Positions 1 through 7,600 of a DNA stretch of 7,600 bases are shown piece by piece. Source of the DNA: a virus (taxonomy: Duplodnaviria; Heunggongvirae; Uroviricota; Caudoviricetes); the IMG/VR virus record IMGVR_UViG_2651869755_000012, one strand, 5' to 3'. Made by a program: the position numbers and the translations under genes. Under the pieces are notes generated by a model that saw nothing but the letters and a program-made list of their open reading frames with translations, made no database searches and was not told the DNA's origin. The stretch's first letter is position 1. Each line of letters starts with the position of its first letter.

Positions 1-2
1 TT

Positions 3-188
3 ACCGAAACGCAAGCAGATGAGCTGATTTTTCCGTCCCTTCGCAGGGCAAACCTGGCGCTGCGCAGGGCGAAAAGTGATGTTCAGAAGTGGGAGCGAGT
101 CTGCGCCGCGCTGCGGGAGCTGAACAAGCACCGGGATATTGTTCGACAGATTACTGATTCTTCCCGCCGTGTTGTATCGGAAAAGTGA
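3..188 (+). CDS. 3' end of an upstream phage gene of unknown function (C-terminal 61 codons; 5' end lies outside the window)
   Basis: Open frame from the window edge (codon phase starting at nt 3) to TGA at 186-188; tail reads ...LRRANLALRRAKSDVQKWERVCAALRELNKHRDIVRQITDSSRRVVSEK. Same strand and tight spacing with the next gene. No motif recognised. Confidence 0.45.
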   Translation, partial: TETQADELIFPSLRRANLALRRAKSDVQKWERVCAALRELNKHRDIVRQITDSSRRVVSEK

Positions 189-203
189 TTGCCGGAGGCG
201 CTT

Positions 204-629
204 ATGGCAAAAGTATTTACACAAGAAGAGCGGGAAAAAATTAAAGGGCAGGTTGTTGAACTTGTACGTCTGAGCGGTCGCGAGACGTTGCGGCAACTGG
301 AAGCCAAGACAGGTGCGACAAGATATCTGATGAGTGTTCTCGCCAGAGAGCTGGTTGCCAGTGGCGATGTATACAACTCTGGTTACGGGTTATTCCCGTC
401 TGAACAGGCGCGTAAGGACTGGCAAAATGCTCGCAAAAAACTCTCAAGGGCAAAGGTGAAGAAACCTGCAGTGGTTGATCCGGACCTTATCTGGTCGTTA
501 CCAGACGGCGAAATACGCCGCTACGACAGGCGCCTGAATATAATCTGTCGCGAGTGCCGGAAGAGCGAAGCTATGCAGCGTGTACTGGCATTTTATCAAG
601 GAAATGTTAGGTATTTTAGACGTTACTAG
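204..629 (+). CDS. Hypothetical phage protein (141 aa), function unknown
   Basis: ATG at 204 preceded by GGAGG (193-197) at good spacing; the six-frame ORF 189..629 starts at an upstream TTG which I do not favour. Basic C-terminus; no catalytic motif recognised. Confidence 0.55.
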   Translation: MAKVFTQEEREKIKGQVVELVRLSGRETLRQLEAKTGATRYLMSVLARELVASGDVYNSGYGLFPSEQARKDWQNARKKLSRAKVKKPAVVDPDLIWSLPDGEIRRYDRRLNIICRECRKSEAMQRVLAFYQGNVRYFRRY

Positions 630-782
630 ATTAAAGAGCATTAGTTCAGATGTGAATTGACATTTTCATGGCGCAGGGTAGAGCCAGCGTGGTTGTCCGC
701 TTTGCGTCAAAACCAGATATTACCAGATTTAGACATATATTCCCGATAGCCCTGCTCTGATGCTACACTCTGTGCTATTTTC

Positions 783-1469
783 ATGACCCCAATAAAAATA
801 TTTATGACTATTGCTGATTTCAAACGGCCTAAATTGGAGCTCCCAAACGGGGCAAACAAACTACTACTGCACTCTTGCTGTGCTCCATGTTCCGGTGAAG
901 TGATGGAGGCGCTTCAGGCCTCGGGAATCGACTACACCATCTTTTTCTACAACCCGAACATTCATCCTCAGAAAGAGTATTTAATTCGTAAGGATGAAAA
1001 TATTCGCTTTGCTGAACAACACGGCGTGCCGTTTATCGATGCTGATTACGACACCGACAACTGGTTTGAACGTGCCAAAGGAATGGAATGGGAGCCTGAG
1101 AGGGGGATCCGTTGTACCATGTGTTTTGACATGCGTTTTGAGCGGACAGCGTTGTACGCTGCTGAAAATGGTTTCAGTGTGATCAGCAGTTCACTGGGCA
1201 TTTCACGCTGGAAAAATATGCAGCAGGTTAACGAGTGTGGGCGGCGAGCTGTTGCGCATTATCCGGGTATGGTGTACTGGGATTATAACTGGCGCAAGCA
1301 GGGCGGCTCGTCCCGTATGATTGAAATCAGCAAGCGCGAAAAATTCTATCAGCAGGAATATTGTGGCTGTGTGTATTCTCTGCGCGATACCAATCTACAC
1401 CGCAAATCTCAGGGACGCCCTCTTATCAAAATTGGCCAACTCCACTACGGAAAAGAAGAGAAGGAGTGA
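783..1469 (+). CDS. queH: QueH-type epoxyqueuosine reductase (DUF208 family)
   Basis: Translation carries the Cys motifs I associate with DUF208/QueH: [11 protein letters not shown] (CCAPC at nt 876-890), CTMCFDMRF and YCGCVYSL. Length 228 aa fits the family. Start could alternatively be the ATG at 804; neither has a strong SD. Confidence 0.75.
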
Positions 1470-1501
1470 TTTTATGGATCACCTTTCTGATTGATTTCAT
1501 A

Positions 1502-1530
1502 TTGGCGAGGTGACGTGAGTTAAGTAGAAT
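1502..1530 (+). promoter_or_regulatory. Putative sigma70 promoter of the hok mRNA (TTGGCG -17- TAGAAT)
   Basis: -35-like TTGGCG at 1502-1507, 17-bp spacer, -10 TAGAAT at 1525-1530. Predicted start near 1537 falls on GCTGCGGGTGCTTGAGGC, which resembles the 5' end of plasmid R1 hok mRNA (GGCGCTTGAGGC) as I recall it. Confidence 0.5.
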
Positions 1531-1599
1531 GGCTGCGGGTGCTTGAGGCTATCTGTCTCAGGCATGAACACTGAAAGGCAGATAGAGAAAAGCCCCAGT

Positions 1600-1667
1600 T
1601 AACATTTCGCGTCCTGCAAGACGCTTAACATTAATCTGAGGCCCAATCTATGTCTCACAAATGTAGG
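1600..1667 (-). ncRNA. Putative Sok-like antisense RNA (position inferred, ends uncertain)
   Basis: On the minus strand, TTGCCT (complement of + 1697-1702), 17-bp spacer, TAACCT (complement of + 1674-1679) form a weak promoter that would transcribe antisense across the mok-like start (ATGTCTCAC at + 1650). This matches the architecture of hok/sok loci. No clear terminator was found, so the 3' end is a guess. Confidence 0.25.
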
Positions 1668-1706
1668 TTAGCCTCTTACGTGCCGAAAGGCAAGGGGAAG
1701 CAGGCT

Positions 1707-1862
1707 ATGAAGCAGCAAAAGGCGATGTTAATCGCCCTGATCGTCATCTGTTTAACCGTCATTGTGACGGCACTGGTAACGAGGAAAGACCTCTGCGAGG
1801 TACGAATCCGAACCGGCCAGACGGAGGTCGCTGTCTTCACAGCTTACGAACCTGAGGAGTAA
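1707..1862 (+). CDS. hokD: Hok/Gef family type I toxin (51 aa), HokD-like
   Basis: MKQQKAMLIALIVICLTVIVTALVTRKDLCEVRIRTGQTEVAVFTAYEPEE: single N-terminal transmembrane helix and the conserved family core. From memory this matches E. coli HokD/RelF closely. An in-frame upstream ATG at 1650 (ORF 1650..1862) corresponds to the mok-like start; AAGGGGAAG lies ahead of the ATG at 1707. Confidence 0.85.
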   Translation: MKQQKAMLIALIVICLTVIVTALVTRKDLCEVRIRTGQTEVAVFTAYEPEE

Positions 1863-1930
1863 GAGACCCGGCGGGGGAGTAATCTCCCGCCACCTCTGAT
1901 GTGCCAGGCATCCTCAACGCACCCGCACTT

Positions 1931-1951
1931 AACCCGCTTCGGCGGGTTTTT
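1931..1951 (+). terminator. Rho-independent terminator ending the hok transcript
   Basis: Hairpin CCCGC-TTCG-GCGGG (1933-1946) followed by TTTTT (1947-1951). Confidence 0.7.
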
Positions 1952-1962
1952 GCATTAGTCTG

Positions 1963-1992
1963 GTTGACAAAAATAGAAAAATGCGAAAATAT
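1963..1992 (+). promoter_or_regulatory. Putative promoter of the two-gene insert (consensus -35 TTGACA)
   Basis: Perfect TTGACA at 1963-1968; weak -10 candidate AAATAT at 1987-1992 (18-bp spacer) inside an A-rich tract; the first ATG of the module is at 2028. Confidence 0.4.
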
Positions 1993-2027
1993 GTGGTTTA
2001 CGAATTCTAAAAAAAGCGAAACTTGAA

Positions 2028-2678
2028 ATGAATGAAAATCAGTTAGCTCCTTGTTGGGAATTTCAACCTTATCTTGCTGAAAACTATGTTCGCCACTTGT
2101 TGGCGGAGATCGCTAACGTACTTGAGCAGCTGTACTATCATAAGCACGCATTAGACAGCAACTGGTCTGAAGGTGTAAGGGCTTATGATTGGGTCAGAAA
2201 TCATCTTATTCAAAATGAAGATGCAATTCCTGGCCTTGAGATGATTTCCAAGGGGTTGGACTATGTAGTTGCTTTAAATAAAGTTCCGCTACAATTTACC
2301 AAAGATTGCATTAATAACCCCAAAAAGAAACATCGTCTGCGTCGAAATAAAGTAGAGTATGAGCAGCTCTCATTGTTTGGTGATGTTGAGGCTGAGCAAG
2401 ATATTACATGGCGAGTCATAGCTGAGCCTTTTTTATCCGAAGAGGGCGATGGTGAATTAGAGTCCACACTGCCTCGTTGGGAGGTAGCTCTTGTTGGATT
2501 TAATACTTATGGTGCTCAGATTAGTATAGTTTCTCATCAATCTACAGCATCGATGCCGCTTATGCCTCTTGATTATAACACACTCCCTGACGAAGCGGAG
2601 ATTAATAAGGTGCCTCTTCGTCGGCGTACGAAGGATAAAGATTTGGATGTGAGCAGTGATGGAACATCAGGTGAATAA
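2028..2678 (+). CDS. Unknown-function protein (216 aa), first gene of a two-gene module with the downstream HTH-peptidase
   Basis: Long ORF in an AT-rich segment, ATG at 2028, stop TAA at 2676-2678 overlapping the next gene's start by 20 nt. Acidic protein with a basic patch (KKKHRLRRNK); no transmembrane segment or catalytic motif recognised. Confidence 0.6.
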   Translation: MNENQLAPCWEFQPYLAENYVRHLLAEIANVLEQLYYHKHALDSNWSEGVRAYDWVRNHLIQNEDAIPGLEMISKGLDYVVALNKVPLQFTKDCINNPKKKHRLRRNKVEYEQLSLFGDVEAEQDITWRVIAEPFLSEEGDGELESTLPRWEVALVGFNTYGAQISIVSHQSTASMPLMPLDYNTLPDEAEINKVPLRRRTKDKDLDVSSDGTSGE

Positions 2679-3762
2679 CTTCACTGAGTATCGGGGTGAT
2701 AAGCTCAAACTAGCGAGAATGGCTGTTGGGCTTTCTTGTGAAGAGTTAGCCGAAAAAATTGGCAAGACAAAGCAATTCGTTAGCAAACTGGAGAAGGGGT
2801 GCAGGCCATCGGAGCAATGTCTTGAGTTAATATCTTCAGCGCTTATGATTAAGTCCAGTTTTCTTTTTACTGAACGAAAATACGCTCTGGAAAGTGATGT
2901 CTGCCATTTTCGGAGTAAGAAGTCCAGGACTCAAACGCTGACTAATAGTGTATTGGCCAGGGCTGAGATTCTTAATATTATAATTTCTGCTGTTGAAGGT
3001 GAAATCGAATTTCCTGACGTTAACATACCGGAGCACCCAGGGGCTGAATTACTTACTCCGAATGATATTGAGCGAGTGGCAGAAGATTGTCGCCGTGCCT
3101 GGAATTTAGGTCTTGGCCCTATATCATCAATGGTTAAATTGGCGGAGAGTTTAGGGGTAATCGTTGCGCATGTTACGGGAGTCGATGATCGTGTTGATGC
3201 TTTTACTGTTCACAATAACAGGCCTGTTATCATCAGGAACAATGTTAAAAAAAGCATATGTAGATTTCGCTCTGATTTAGGTCATGAATTAGGGCATTTA
3301 GTAATGCATGAGGGCATAACGACAGGTGATAAACTTACGGAATCACAAGCCGATCACTTTTCGAGCGCCTTATTAGTTCCCAGGTTATCTTTCATTAAAG
3401 AATTTCCACGAATACGAGGTAAGCAATTCGACTGGAATGCTCTGGTTGAATTTAAACTTAGATGGAAAATCAGCCTTAAAATGTGTATTTATCGAGCCAG
3501 CGCATTAGGCTTATTGACCCAGGAACAGGCAAGAACTGGCTATATGCATCTTAATTCCAGAGGGTATACGAGAGTTGAACCTGGTGATGAACTTTTGCGC
3601 CCTGAAGAACCCGGCATGCTGGCCGAGGCGATTGAAATGCTGGATGATGCAACCTGGCTAAGAATTCTTATGAAAACTGGCTTGAGCCAAGATTTAATTC
3701 GTGAGTTGTTCTCCATCAACAGACCTATTACAAATCCAAGAAATATTTTCCAGATTGTTTGA
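2659..3762 (+). CDS. Fused XRE-family HTH / ImmA-IrrE (COG2856, M78-like) zinc metallopeptidase, 367 aa
   Basis: N-terminal XRE-type helix-turn-helix (LARMAVGLSCEELAEKIGKTKQFVSKLEKG) and a central HEXXH zinc site (HELGH at nt 3283-3297, within DLGHELGHLVMHEG), plus about 150 aa of C-terminal extension. ATG at 2659 (GTG at 2656 also possible); stop TGA 3760-3762. Confidence 0.8.
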   Translation: MEHQVNNFTEYRGDKLKLARMAVGLSCEELAEKIGKTKQFVSKLEKGCRPSEQCLELISSALMIKSSFLFTERKYALESDVCHFRSKKSRTQTLTNSVLARAEILNIIISAVEGEIEFPDVNIPEHPGAELLTPNDIERVAEDCRRAWNLGLGPISSMVKLAESLGVIVAHVTGVDDRVDAFTVHNNRPVIIRNNVKKSICRFRSDLGHELGHLVMHEGITTGDKLTESQADHFSSALLVPRLSFIKEFPRIRGKQFDWNALVEFKLRWKISLKMCIYRASALGLLTQEQARTGYMHLNSRGYTRVEPGDELLRPEEPGMLAEAIEMLDDATWLRILMKTGLSQDLIRELFSINRPITNPRNIFQIV

Positions 3763-3766
3763 GTAT

Positions 3767-3787
3767 ACCCGCTTCGGCGGGTTTTTT
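3767..3787 (+). terminator. Rho-independent terminator after the two-gene module (same hairpin as at 1932-1951)
   Basis: CCCGC-TTCG-GCGGG (3768-3781) followed by TTTTTT (3782-3787); the 20-mer ACCCGCTTCGGCGGGTTTTT is identical to 1932-1951. Confidence 0.7.
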
Positions 3788-3806
3788 GTTTTTATTTTCA
3801 ACGTGT

Positions 3807-3836
3807 TTGAAGTTTTGGACGGTGCCAGAATAGAAT
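3807..3836 (+). promoter_or_regulatory. Putative sigma70 promoter (TTGAAG -18- TAGAAT)
   Basis: TTGAAG at 3807-3812, 18-bp spacer, TAGAAT at 3831-3836, upstream of the ORF starting at 3872. Confidence 0.4.
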
Positions 3837-3871
3837 CAAAAATACTTAAGTAGCGCGCAGGGAGAAGAGGG

Positions 3872-4093
3872 ATGGACCCCGAACAGGGGGAGTGCTATTT
3901 ATCTGGAAGGATTCTGTTGATGAAAATCGAAGAATTACGTGAAATTTTTAGTGAAGATGGCCTCTATGCTGTGCGCGTTGAGAATGGGGGTATTACCTAC
4001 ACAGCGTTAATTCCTGATGATCATGTAGTGTTATCTGTTGAGGCATTCATTGAATACTTGGAAAGACTCGGTTTCAAGGTAGTTCGGGAATAA
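3872..4093 (+). CDS. Small hypothetical phage protein (73 aa; alternative start ATG 3920 gives 57 aa)
   Basis: ORF with GGAG at 3861-3864 ahead of ATG 3872; the internal in-frame ATG at 3920 has GGAAGGA at 3904-3910. No motif recognised. Confidence 0.45.
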   Translation: MDPEQGECYLSGRILLMKIEELREIFSEDGLYAVRVENGGITYTALIPDDHVVLSVEAFIEYLERLGFKVVRE

Positions 4094-4152
4094 GTTATAA
4101 TACGTGAGCCAGCCTGAACAACTGGCAACCTGCAGCGCCATTGGAGATGACA

Positions 4153-4425
4153 ATGGCGCATAATTTCAAATTTCGCAATTCTGATTCTGCCTTTGCCAGC
4201 AGGCACGGGTGGCGTTCTCACGCATTCAAATATGACTGGTATCAGCACGATCCCTGTACTGAAGAACAGGCCGAATGGCTGATTCATAACTACCGCAGAC
4301 GTGGATATGAGTTTAGGAAAGCCCTCACCCTCGATTATCGTCACTGGATAATCTACGTCAGACTCCCTTATTCCGAACGCCCACCGCGTCCGTCCCGCAC
4401 ATTCCAGCAACGCATCTGGAGGTAA
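4153..4425 (+). CDS. Hypothetical phage protein (about 90 aa)
   Basis: ORF 4141..4425 in the track (TTG start); I prefer ATG 4153 with TGGAGA at 4142-4147. Stop TAA 4423-4425 lies 1 nt before the next gene's GTG. Trp/Arg/His-rich; no motif recognised. Confidence 0.4.
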   Translation: MAHNFKFRNSDSAFASRHGWRSHAFKYDWYQHDPCTEEQAEWLIHNYRRRGYEFRKALTLDYRHWIIYVRLPYSERPPRPSRTFQQRIWR

Positions 4426-4426
4426 C

Positions 4427-5473
4427 GTGCGGGTATTACTTCGACCTGTTCTGGTACCGGAACTCGGGCTGGTGATCGTTAAGCCGGGCCGTGAATCCAT
4501 GCCGGTATTCCACAATACCCGGGTACTGGTGGAGCCGGAACCGAAAAGCATGCGTAATCTGCCGTCCGGGGTCGTTCCTGCCGTTCGCCAGCCGCTGGCG
4601 GAGGATAAATCATTACTGCCATTTTTCAGCGACGAACGAGTGATTCGTGCTGCTGGTGGCGCTGGCGCATTGTCTGATTGGTTACTGCGCCATGTTAAAT
4701 CCTGCCAGTGGCCACACGGCGATTATCACCACAGTGAAACCGTCATTCACCGTTATGGTACCGGCGCAATGGTGTTGTGCTGGCACTGCGACAACCAGCT
4801 GCGCGACCAGACCTCCGAATCACTCGGGCAACTTGCTCACCAAAACCTGTCTGCATGGATGATTGACGTCATACGCCATGCAATGAATGGCTCGCAGGAA
4901 CGGGAATTATCGCTGGCTGAATTATCCTGGTGGGCGGTCCGCAATCAGGTGGCGGACGCGCTACCGGAAGCGGTATTACGTCGTTCGCTGGGGTTGCGTG
5001 CGGAAAAAATCCGCTCAATGTACCGTGAAAGCGACATCGTACCGGGAGAGCAGACCGCCACCAGCATACTGAAGCAGCGCACAAAAAATCTTGCGCCGCT
5101 GCCTCACGCCCACCAGCAAAACCCGCCACAGGAAGAGACGGTGGTCAGCATTGCCGTTGATCCTGAGTCTCCGGAATCTTTCATGAAACGACCTAAACGT
5201 CGCCGCTGGGTTAACGAGAAATACACACGCTGGGTGAAGACACAGCCGTGTGCGTGTTGTGGTAAGCCAGCCGACGATCCCCATCACCTGATTGGTCATG
5301 GTCAGGGCGGAATGGGGACAAAATCTCACGATATTTTCACGCTACCGCTGTGTCGGGAGCATCACAACGAGCTTCATGCGGATCCTCTGGCGTTCGAAGA
5401 AAAGCATGGTTCTCAGGTTGATTTAATTTTTCGTTTTCTTGATCACGCCTTTGCAACTGGCGTGCTTGGGTAA
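4427..5473 (+). CDS. DUF968 family phage protein (YdfU-like) with C-terminal Cys/His nuclease-like motif
   Basis: GTG start at 4427 preceded by GGAGG (4418-4422). C-terminal region KTQPCACCGKPADDPHHLIGHGQGGMGTKSHDIFTLPLCREHHNELH resembles the YbcO/DUF1364-type motif found in DUF968 proteins of lambdoid prophages. Position (upstream of rusA and Q) matches Qin-type prophages. Confidence 0.7.
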   Translation: MRVLLRPVLVPELGLVIVKPGRESMPVFHNTRVLVEPEPKSMRNLPSGVVPAVRQPLAEDKSLLPFFSDERVIRAAGGAGALSDWLLRHVKSCQWPHGDYHHSETVIHRYGTGAMVLCWHCDNQLRDQTSESLGQLAHQNLSAWMIDVIRHAMNGSQERELSLAELSWWAVRNQVADALPEAVLRRSLGLRAEKIRSMYRESDIVPGEQTATSILKQRTKNLAPLPHAHQQNPPQEETVVSIAVDPESPESFMKRPKRRRWVNEKYTRWVKTQPCACCGKPADDPHHLIGHGQGGMGTKSHDIFTLPLCREHHNELHADPLAFEEKHGSQVDLIFRFLDHAFATGVLG

Positions 5474-5485
5474 AAGAGGTGACTG

Positions 5486-5845
5486 ATGCTCATAGATTTG
5501 GTTTTACCTTACCCGCCGACGGTGAACACTTACTGGCGACGCCGTGGCAGCACATATTTTATCTCGGAGGAGGGAAAGCGTTATCGCCGGGCTGTGGCGC
5601 TTATTGTTCGCCAGCAGCGGCTGAAATTAAGCCTGTCCGGAAGGCTGGCGATAAAGGTGATTGCAGAGCCACCGGATAAGCGCCGCCGCGACCTGGACAA
5701 TATCCTGAAGGCACCACTGGATGCGCTGACGCATGCCGGACTACTTATAGACGACGAGCAGTTTGATGAAATCAATATTGTGCGCGGTCAGCTCGTTCCT
5801 GGTGGGCGGCTGGGGATAAAAATCACAGAACTGGAGTGCGCATGA
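5486..5845 (+). CDS. rusA: RusA Holliday-junction resolvase (crossover junction endodeoxyribonuclease)
   Basis: 119 aa; PYPPTVNTYW N-terminus and PDKRRRDLDNILKAPLDALTHAGLLIDD match the RusA active-site region (PDRRRRDLDN in DLP12 RusA as I recall). SD AAGAGGTGA at 5474-5482. Confidence 0.85.
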   Translation: MLIDLVLPYPPTVNTYWRRRGSTYFISEEGKRYRRAVALIVRQQRLKLSLSGRLAIKVIAEPPDKRRRDLDNILKAPLDALTHAGLLIDDEQFDEINIVRGQLVPGGRLGIKITELECA

Positions 5846-6531
5846 ATAACCAGTATTTACAGTTTGTGCGTGAGCAGCTCATTATCGCCACCGCTGATTT
5901 GAGTGGGGCAACAAAAGGTCAGCTTGAAGCCTGGCAGGAGAATGCCATGTTCGATACAGGGCGTTACAGGCGTAAAAAAATCCGGTACCGCGATGAAGTG
6001 ACCGGAAAAATGATAACGCGGGATAATCCACCAATCCCGGGAAAACAATCGCTGGCGAAGGGGACGTCAATTCCTCTGGTCAGTCAGGTTGCTTTTTCTA
6101 CATCATCATGGCGGCGGGCTGTTTTGTCTCTTGAAGAACATCATAAAGCCTGGTTGTTGTGGTGTTACAGCGGAAATACTTGCTGGGAGTATCAGATCGC
6201 GATAACGCAGTGGGCATGGACAGAATTTAAGACTCACTCTGGTACCAGGAAAATTGCAGGGAAGACACAGGAACGCCTGAAAAAATTAATCTGGCTGGCT
6301 GCACAGGATGTCAGGAGATGGGTTATAGGACATGATATCTACCAGCAACAGGAGCTTGCCCGTCTGTGTGGGATTAAGCCTGACAACTGGAGCCACAATT
6401 ATGTGAGCTACTGGCGTGAAATACTCGACATTTTTATGAACCTCGATACCGAATCTCTGATTTGCACTGTGAAAAGGAGATCTCAACAAAAAGCGGCATT
6501 TTTGCAGCGAGATATTGCAAAAGTCAATTAG
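5842..6531 (+). CDS. Putative Q-like late antiterminator (229 aa)
   Basis: ATG at 5842 overlaps the rusA stop (ATGA, 5842-5845). The gene sits directly downstream of rusA and directly upstream of an intergenic terminator, the canonical place for Q in lambdoid phages. Assignment is by position and size; no diagnostic motif was verified. Confidence 0.5.
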   Translation: MNNQYLQFVREQLIIATADLSGATKGQLEAWQENAMFDTGRYRRKKIRYRDEVTGKMITRDNPPIPGKQSLAKGTSIPLVSQVAFSTSSWRRAVLSLEEHHKAWLLWCYSGNTCWEYQIAITQWAWTEFKTHSGTRKIAGKTQERLKKLIWLAAQDVRRWVIGHDIYQQQELARLCGIKPDNWSHNYVSYWREILDIFMNLDTESLICTVKRRSQQKAAFLQRDIAKVN

Positions 6532-6578
6532 ATAGCATATATTTTATGTAAATGTGATATATTGCTGTAAAGTGTATA

Positions 6579-6605
6579 AACCCGCTCAAATGTGCGGGTT
6601 TTTTG
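6579..6605 (+). terminator. Rho-independent terminator (tR'-like) downstream of the Q-like gene
   Basis: CCCGC (6581-6585), 8-nt loop, GCGGG (6594-6598), then TTTTTT (6599-6604). An AT-rich promoter-like stretch at 6532-6580 precedes it, with a TATAAA-like hexamer at 6575-6580 (promoter not confidently resolved). Confidence 0.6.
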
Positions 6606-6677
6606 CTTAACTCTGTGGACCTTTTTATCTGTAGTTGTAATATATGGATATTGTTACAATTTAGGTCGGTGAGCTTA

Positions 6678-7355
6678 ATGGAAGAACAGCACGGTAATTA
6701 CTTTATAAAACGAATTCAGTTGATTGGAAGAGGGGCATTTGGCTTTGTTGAACACGTTAAGGTTTACAACCTCAATAAAGGTGAATGCGGGGATTATGCT
6801 AGAAAGGTTTTAGCACCCGAAAAACCAGAGCTTTTGGCGCAAATAGAGCAGTTTAGAAGGCGTTTTAAAAGGGAGGTTGTGTATCAATCACATTGCGTAC
6901 ATAGCAATATTGTTCCTATTTATTTGTGCGATTTGTTTGTTGAGAATCCATGGTTCATTATGGATAAAGCAGAATGTGATCTTGAGCACGAAATAACGAA
7001 CAACCTTCTTACAACAGATCAAAAAATTTCAATAGTGAAAATGGTATTAGATGGTGTAGCTTACATCCATGCCAAAGGCTATTTACACAGAGATATAAAA
7101 CCCTTTAATGTTTTGCGATTTAGCGACGGAACATACAAGGTGTCTGATTTTGGTCTGGTAAAAGATACGAATCCCGAAGGGGATACCACTAAATTGACCG
7201 AGATCGGTACCCGTATGGGAAGTACAAGATATATGGCTCCCGAGATTTTATATAATGCAGAGTATTCAGTTAAGACTGATGTTTATGCTGTGGGACGGTT
7301 AATTGAAGACTTAAATTTAGATGATAAAAAAATAAAGCCTATCATAGCTAAGTGA
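6678..7355 (+). CDS. Eukaryotic-like Ser/Thr protein kinase (Hanks-type), probably C-terminally truncated by IS insertion
   Basis: Gly-rich loop IGRGAFG (6723-6743), catalytic loop HRDIKPFN (7086-7109), DFG (7146-7154) and APE (7236-7244). ATG 6678 follows GGTGAG at 6668-6673; the track's TTG 6603 start lies inside the terminator. Only about 35 aa follow APE, and the stop TGA 7353-7355 is the first 3 bases of the IS terminal repeat. Confidence 0.75.
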   Translation: MEEQHGNYFIKRIQLIGRGAFGFVEHVKVYNLNKGECGDYARKVLAPEKPELLAQIEQFRRRFKREVVYQSHCVHSNIVPIYLCDLFVENPWFIMDKAECDLEHEITNNLLTTDQKISIVKMVLDGVAYIHAKGYLHRDIKPFNVLRFSDGTYKVSDFGLVKDTNPEGDTTKLTEIGTRMGSTRYMAPEILYNAEYSVKTDVYAVGRLIEDLNLDDKKIKPIIAK

Positions 7356-7600
7356 ACCGCCCCGGGTTTCCTGGAGAGTATTTTATCTGTGAACTCAGGC
7401 TGCCAGATCATCGTTTCCGATGGAAGCATAATAAGCTTTTTCTGCTTCTGCCGGAGGAGTATGGCCCAGCCTTTCCAGCAATCGTCGATTGTTATACCAG
7501 TCCACCCACGTGAGTGTGGCCAGTTCCACTTCTGCACGGTTTTTCCAGCTCTTACGGTGTATTACCTCCGCTTTGTAAAGACCATTGATGCTCTCCGCCA
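7353..7600 (-). mobile_element. Terminal part of an IS3-family insertion sequence (IS629/IS1203-like), extends beyond the window
   Basis: Terminal inverted repeat begins TGAACCGCCCCGGGTTTCCTGGAGAG at 7353; the minus strand encodes the C-terminus of an IS3-family transposase. I recall both as IS629-like. Confidence 0.8.
7395..7600 (-). CDS. IS3-family transposase OrfB, C-terminal fragment (5' end outside the window)
   Basis: Minus-strand translation ...AESINGLYKAEVIHRKSWKNRAEVELATLTWVDWYNNRRLLERLGHTPPAEAEKAYYASIGNDDLAA, stop (complement of 7395-7397). WVDWYNNRRL...LGH is the conserved C-terminal motif of IS3-family (DDE) transposases. This is a different frame from the track ORF 7283..7537. 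Confidence 0.8.
   Translation of the reverse strand, partial: AESINGLYKAEVIHRKSWKNRAEVELATLTWVDWYNNRRLLERLGHTPPAEAEKAYYASIGNDDLAA

Follow-up and report, generated by a model that had tools for sequence, protein, structure and literature searches.

The region between positions 1502 and 1951 of the analysed stretch of 7,600 nucleotides (hereafter the window) very probably represents a complete hok-mok-sok type I toxin-antitoxin cassette of the hokD/hokW type in a lambdoid prophage, with a mechanism that by homology would resemble those of R1 and of the Sp5 prophage. Its sequence anatomy, its homology to known loci, a conserved and covarying RNA structure and the identity of its antisense promoter to an experimentally tested one are directly established. 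The locus as such is already known and annotated, and a copy with 93% identity has been characterised by experiment.

A stretch of 481 bp comprising the cassette (1480-1960) is shared with 100% identity by at least 25 complete E. coli chromosomes and labelled by RefSeq as “type I toxin-antitoxin system toxin HokD”, and similar sequence was detected in 4938 of 5426 complete E. coli genomes. The phage collection contains 79 records that are 93-95% identical to the locus, including 933W and VT2-Sakai (Sp5), which carry annotations for mokW, hokW and sokW. According to a preprint from 2025-26, IMG/VR holds 6290 Hok homologues and hok is four-fold enriched in prophages.

Positions 1-7354 of the window are 99.99% identical to a prophage of E. 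coli 118UI. The gene order of this prophage runs from ydfC/ydfB, repressor-like HTH genes, YdaS/YdaT, replication genes, DUF1627 and DUF977 to queH, hokD, two genes, DUF968, rusA, Q and a kinase. The cassette is located in a lambda-like prophage, flanked by queH and an HTH/M78 gene, with DUF968-rusA-Q further downstream.

The prophage-borne queH gene, predicted to encode an epoxyqueuosine reductase, occupies positions 783-1469 immediately upstream of hok. Directly downstream of hok (2028-3762) lies an overlapping gene pair encoding a 216-aa protein without a Pfam match and a 368-aa protein with HTH_3 and Peptidase_M78 domains (ImmA/IrrE-like); the pair could be a regulatory or defence module. 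An Rfam match to Leu_leader at 6502-6604 was rejected, as it scored 27 bits against a required 50 and merely reflects a strong intrinsic terminator (AAACCCGC...GCGGGTTTTTT), which is situated between Q and the kinase gene and is probably the terminator of the late operon that Q acts upon. At position 7355 the window leaves the 118UI prophage sequence and enters the end of an IS3-family element (TGAACCGCCCCGGG...; 7355-7600) that encodes the C-terminus of the transposase on the minus strand (7395-7529). The Ser/Thr kinase ORF (6603..7355) ends at the first TGA of this element, whereas in 118UI the kinase is followed by a PP2C phosphatase gene instead.

The hok/mok mRNA is presumably transcribed from a plus-strand promoter at 1502-1530 (TTGGCG-17-TAGAAT), which was detected by a promoter scan with 9 of 12 matches and whose -10 hexamer TAGAAT is kept in nearly all close relatives. 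An intrinsic terminator was predicted on the same strand at 1931-1951, consisting of a 7-bp stem (1931-1948) with five G-C pairs and a T run. Promoter and terminator together suggest a full-length mRNA of 415 nt (1537..1951) with a putative start at GGGUG... and an end in the U tract of the terminator. The full-length model (1-157) of the Rfam family RF01794 (sok) aligned to plus-strand positions 1537-1712 at 120.5 bits (gathering score 59, E 7.8e-28), its start coinciding with the first position of the proposed mRNA. Since the family as aligned extends from tac to the hok AUG in the hok-sense strand, this match marks the hok leader or locus and not the Sok strand.

The hok toxin gene (1707..1862, plus strand) encodes 51 amino acids, was assigned to Pfam family PF01848 (HOK_GEF; E 3e-23, 81.6 bits, cut-off 22) and yields a product identical to HokD (RelF) of E. 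coli K-12 in 51 of 51 residues. According to the six-frame ORF list the mok frame (1650..1862, plus strand) comprises 70 codons, that is 19 additional N-terminal codons compared with hok, and its last 51 codons encode MKQQKAMLIALIVICLTVIVTALVTRKDLCEVRIRTGQTEVAVFTAYEPEE.

Codon 47 of hok is TAC followed by G (UACG, 1845-1848), which corresponds to the context of A-to-I editing by TadA. This context has been reported for hokB and, as stated in the introduction of a recent preprint, also for hokC, hokD and hokE, where the change from Tyr to Cys is required for a disulfide. The toxicity of the HokD encoded in the window may depend on mRNA editing.

The leader was compared in an alignment of the window with 933W, a Rac-type phage hok, hokD of an IncY plasmid, hokD and hokC of K-12 and an R1-type hok, and its elements were named according to the R1 model as it is described in PMC9841398. 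The preliminary description had likened the leader to the R1 hok mRNA from promoter to terminator, and the alignment agrees with it, every element being in register with R1 and 933W. The four motifs it had quoted are also present where it placed them, namely GCTTGAGGCT (1541-1550), CTATGTCTCAC (1648-1658), AGCCTCTTAC (1670-1679) and AAGGGGAAGCAGGCTATGAAG (1692-1712).

All elements of the leader and of the 3' region lie on the plus strand. The tac element (translational activator, GGGUGCUUGAGGCU, 1537..1550) pairs with fbi in the full-length fold and with its partner in the 5' metastable hairpin (GUCUCAGGCAU, 1555..1565) in the 3'-truncated fold. A ucb-like box (AGCCCCAG, 1591..1598) is complementary to tac and to the region of the mok Shine-Dalgarno sequence (SD), the latter through positions 1592-1598. 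The mok SD itself, GAGG, is found at 1638-1641, which corrects the position given previously; it is invariant in the 38 homologues of the covariation alignment described below and complementary both to ucb (1592-1598) and to dcb (1671-1675). The mok AUG is contained in a predicted Sok target hairpin (1645..1669), the loop of which (1654-1660) begins with CUCA and so conforms to YUNR. Two invariant complementary boxes follow at 1671-1677, where dcb (GCCUC, 1671-1675), pairing with the mok SD, overlaps a CUCUU sequence (1673-1677) pairing with the hok SD. Behind the hok gene, the fbi element (fold-back inhibition, CCUCAACGCACCC, 1912..1924) is complementary to tac with one bulged C, as indicated by the folds and by covariation.

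The predicted structure of the full-length hok RNA has a minimum free energy (MFE) of -167 kcal/mol (z -5.96), with tac closed on fbi by 12 pairs with one bulge; the ViennaRNA MFE structure departs in some details from that published for R1. In the fold of the 3'-truncated RNA, the 5' tac hairpin forms instead of the tac/fbi stem.

The conservation of this structure was analysed in a MAFFT alignment of 38 homologues from Escherichia, Kluyvera, Pseudocitrobacter, Citrobacter, Photorhabdus, Pantoea and IncF plasmids. RNAalifold recovered the tac/fbi stem and 12 other helices. In the consensus structure of 69 pairs, 95.8% of the cells are paired compared with 40-46% in slid-partner controls, compensatory changes occur at 23 pairs, and none of 500 shuffles matched the observed score. 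The mapping of tac and fbi against hokD and R1-type hok, proposed earlier as a check, placed both elements and found their fold-back pairing kept with covariation. Position 4 of tac changes together with fbi (pair 4:424; UA in 25 and CG in 11 homologues, across Escherichia, Kluyvera, Photorhabdus and IncF plasmids) as well as with its metastable partner (UA 25, CG 10), a coupled covariation as expected for the hok folding pathway.

The 5' metastable hairpin (columns 3-13 with 19-29) comprises 11 pairs, of which 95.2% of the cells are paired and three show compensatory changes, with 0 of 500 shuffles as good. In the ucb helix (columns 72-78 with 120-126) two pairs covary, one as AU 29/GC 9 and the other as GC 18/AU 7/UA 3/CG 2. 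The pairs between dcb and the mok SD are invariant among the 38 homologues and hence uninformative for covariation, and the helix of CUCUU with the hok SD corresponds to columns 160-164 with 181-185. Of 108 relatives, 58 have a YUNR motif in the Sok target loop (CUCA, 1654-1657 in the window) at one of the two offsets examined; as a family trait the motif is enriched at fixed offsets without being universal. Apparently unpaired cells of Photorhabdus in the distal part of tac/fbi (columns 7-12) were dismissed as an alignment artefact and do not represent lost pairing, since the Photorhabdus fbi has no bulge and the MAFFT columns are therefore shifted by one.

On the minus strand, a Sok antisense RNA of approximately 71 nt is predicted at 1588..1658. 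Its coordinates were carried over from sokW of 933W, a 71-nt minus-strand RNA (1571..1641 of that locus), there being no indel in this stretch. The RNA is predicted to fold (-31.4 kcal/mol, z -4.88) into a long hairpin flanked by a 5' tail of approximately 14 nt, complementary to the region of the mok start, and by a U-rich tail.

The minus-strand promoter TTGCCT-17-TAACCT that had been proposed for this RNA is present at 1665..1693, with the -35 hexamer at 1693-1688, a 17-nt spacer and the -10 hexamer at 1670-1665, and it is base-for-base identical to the sokW promoter of 933W. The same arrangement occurs in 60 of 115 distinct relatives, which comprise the hokD, hokW and hokC groups. A generic sigma-70 promoter scan did not report this promoter because TAACCT matches TATAAT at only three of six positions; the scan alone is thus neither for nor against the site, and the promoter call relies on its identity to the tested sokW promoter. 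In the promoter-less sokW construct of Takada 2021 (PMC8621323), primers YO-421/422 replace TAGGTTA, the complement of TAACCTA. The hexamer destroyed in that construct is the predicted -10 TAACCT, which is identical in the window. Mutation of the sokW -10 abolished the antitoxin activity, and sokW expressed from its own promoter neutralised HokW (PMC8621323).

Compared with R1 and hokC, the hokD/hokW group carries an insertion of approximately 17 nt (GCGUCCUGCAAGACGC) at the tip of the leader hairpin (1603-1628), which lengthens the terminator hairpin of Sok. It is absent from a subgroup of prophage loci (L025, L029, L036 and others).

The closest characterised relative is the hokW-mokW-sokW cassette of 933W and Sp5 (VT2-Sakai), which is likewise located in a lambdoid prophage and shares 93% nucleotide identity with the window over the mRNA. 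In 933W, mokW (1633..1845 of the locus) and hokW (1690..1845) share a stop codon, mok lying in frame 57 nt upstream of hok as in the window, and Mok of the window is 89% identical to MokW. The sok promoter (identical), the extended Sok hairpin, tac and fbi are shared as well. The two cassettes differ in their location, that of 933W being near one genome end beside L0136-L0141 and that of the window between queH and the DUF968-rusA-Q block, and in the Hok C-terminus, which reads TAYEPEE in the window and VDYESEK in 933W. Unlike the window, 933W lacks the ACCCGCTTCGGCGGGTTTTT terminator directly after fbi; a further difference is the hok SD, AAGGGG, of the window.

Transcription, processing, toxicity and biological role of the cassette in the strain that carries the window can be proposed by homology with R1 hok/sok and Sp5 hokW-sokW. 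The fairly strong promoter would give rise to a stable mRNA of 415 nt in which the 5' tac pairs with the 3' fbi and the mok SD is kept shut. Slow trimming of the 3' end would remove fbi and allow the 5' end to refold, tac pairing with ucb and the mok SD with dcb, and the refolded mRNA would expose the mok start and the Sok target hairpin. The short and unstable Sok RNA (approximately 71 nt, from TTGCCT-17-TAACCT) would then pair across the mok start, blocking translation of mok and hence the coupled translation of hok, and the duplex would be marked for RNase III. When the synthesis of Sok stops, as after induction of the Sp5 prophage, mok and hok would be translated and the 51-aa Hok membrane peptide would damage the inner membrane. 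As mok is in frame with hok, ribosomes starting at 1650 are expected to produce a 70-aa Mok-Hok read-through product besides opening the hok start.

Several of these steps have been demonstrated for the Sp5 copy. HokW of Sp5 is toxic, and the hokW-sokW system was shown to depend on Sok and partially on RNase III and Hfq (PMC8621323). Following treatment with mitomycin C, the sokW RNA vanishes and HokW appears in the inner membrane in a RecA-dependent manner (PMC8621323).

The preliminary description had regarded the locus as apparently intact. This is supported in that all elements are present and in register, but it requires a caveat, since the hok SD (1692..1697, plus strand) reads AAGGGG instead of the consensus AAGGAG of the aligned relatives, and this substitution (A1696G) is the counterpart of one that suppresses toxicity in R1. 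G1696 is one of two nearly private bases, the other being T1607, that distinguish the window from 68 close relatives. Position 1696, 11 nt upstream of the A in the hok AUG, corresponds to A163 of R1; the R1 numbering was checked on p1658/97 (L141), in which mok is at 116-118 (T117/G118) and hok at 174-176 (G176), as well as by 'G16G'. R1 A163G is listed among the substitutions that let cells survive hok without Sok, an effect ascribed by the authors to SD recognition (PMC9841398). Considering the suppressor status of A163G, the Hok output of the window may be lower than that of hokW.

It is possible, if rather unlikely, that the cassette is structurally complete but attenuated, the change from GGAG to GGGG reducing the translation of Hok to such an extent that this tamed hokD kills weakly or not at all. 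Besides the correspondence to the R1 suppressor whose effect was attributed to SD recognition in PMC9841398, this explanation is consistent with the rarity of the SD among distinct relatives, almost all of which have AAGGAG, while AAGGGG was found in 2 of 115. However, AAGGGG is still able to pair with the anti-SD via G-U wobble, and the main text of PMC9841398 gives no magnitude for the effect of A163G. Thermodynamic predictions for the full-length and the truncated RNA revealed no meaningful change in accessibility that would hide the hok SD, the values for G and A being 0.36 and 0.37 in the full-length RNA and 0.46 and 0.39 in the truncated RNA; in the hairpin, A1696G merely turns the pair U1674-A1696 into U-G. 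The G allele is moreover common, occurring in 493 of 5426 complete E. coli genomes (494 places), compared with 3192 genomes (5619 places) that carry the A allele on equal local sequence, and in 48 IMG/VR contigs versus more than 120 with A among the matches listed. Its presence on several 3' haplotypes with intact hok ORFs does not resemble decay, which argues against attenuation. As a quite tentative suggestion, the AAGGGG allele (A1696G, linked to T1607) might represent a naturally selected “low-output” prophage hokD that has spread to approximately 9% of E. coli genomes.

The ATG at 1650 had been described as in frame with hok, and this was confirmed: it precedes the hok ATG at 1707 by 57 nt and its ORF is open to the hok stop, giving the geometry of an N-terminally extended Hok. 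It appears improbable that the resulting 70-aa Mok-Hok is itself functional as a longer toxin or modulator and that the frame is selected for this protein and not merely for translational coupling. Such a role would be in line with the annotation of MokW and MokC as proteins of this kind and with the frequency of the arrangement, as 88 of the 115 distinct relatives have mok 57 nt upstream of hok, in frame and always open through hok. The mok ATG is aligned in 108 of the 115, and in the remaining arrangements mok is located either 58 nt upstream (10 of 115), encoding Mok as a separate, overlapping protein of 55-69 aa in the arrangement of canonical R1, or 56 nt upstream (10 of 115), in which case mok has 19 codons and its TGA forms an ATGA overlap with the hok ATG. 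However, the frame flips between close relatives via single-base indels (e.g. L003, L007, L009 and L113), so that, unlike the mok start and SD, it is not conserved, and no part of the leader varies more than the first codons following the mok ATG. These flips fit the view published for R1, as given in PMC9841398, that it is the translation of mok up to the hok SD that matters and not the Mok product, which speaks against a special role of the 70-aa fusion. Judged from the relatives and from the annotation of mokW (933W) and mokC (K-12), the in-frame mok is the majority state of the clade and no peculiarity of the window.

IncF plasmids of the R1 type differ in this respect too, mok being located 57 nt upstream of hok and in frame in one (L006) and 58 nt upstream in another (L141).

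The R1/IncF hok/mok/sok system (parB) shares with the window the order of tac, metastable hairpin, ucb, mok SD, Sok target, dcb, hok SD, hok, fbi and terminator as well as the Pfam and Rfam families, whereas R1-type Hok is only 42% identical to Hok of the window. In R1, mok (+116) and hok (+174) are 58 nt apart and out of frame, resulting in a separate 70-aa Mok, the Sok hairpin lacks the extension of approximately 17 nt (GCGUCC...GGACGC) seen in the window, and the role of the system is post-segregational killing by a plasmid. The hokC/mokC/sokC locus (gef) of K-12 resembles the window in that mokC and hokC share a stop codon with mok in frame, at a nucleotide identity of approximately 76%. 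It differs in being chromosomal and not prophage-borne and in its short Sok hairpin, and it abuts IS186 on its 3' side, where the alignment to the window stops.

In hokD (relF) of the K-12 prophage Qin, identity to the window is 97.7% over the 3' UTR, fbi and terminator, and the gene likewise lies upstream of ydfU (DUF968) and Q, at the same relative position. The homology begins only at window position 1693, just before the hok SD, with the K-12 gene located directly behind relBE. Consequently, hokD of K-12 has no promoter, tac, ucb, mok or sok, and the window contains the complete form.

That the locus in the window is a decaying, non-functional remnant of the same kind is highly improbable: the chromosomal hok loci of K-12 are indeed interrupted, and K-12 hokD retains only the equivalent of 1693-1952 fused behind relE, but the window has the full set of elements in register (promoter, tac, ucb, mok SD and start, dcb, hok ORF, fbi, terminator and sok promoter), and the RNA structure is kept with covariation.

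Two IMG/VR loci with the G1696 leader (L145 and L157) have a wholly different sequence upstream of 1536, the hok promoter being replaced at the transcription start. This replacement recalls the loss of the 5' part of hokD in K-12.

With regard to the biological role of the complete cassette, prophage maintenance or abortive infection had been considered. The data for a prophage copy, all of which come from Sp5, instead point to a contribution to lysis and phage release upon induction, as deletion of hokW-sokW from Sp5 delayed lysis and halved the phage yield (PMC8621323).

The significance of the locus as such is small. Its in-frame mok and antisense RNA were already annotated in 933W, the Sp5 copy was tested experimentally in 2021, and hundreds of public genomes contain the exact sequence, named hokD. 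The window nevertheless provides the complete ancestral form of the truncated hokD (relF) of K-12 in an equivalent prophage position. With the common A1696G variant, the R1 FASTBAC-Seq result that changes beside the hok SD suppress killing could be tested simply on natural alleles. If the reading of this variant as a low-output allele were true, strong and weak alleles of one prophage toxin would coexist in natural populations.
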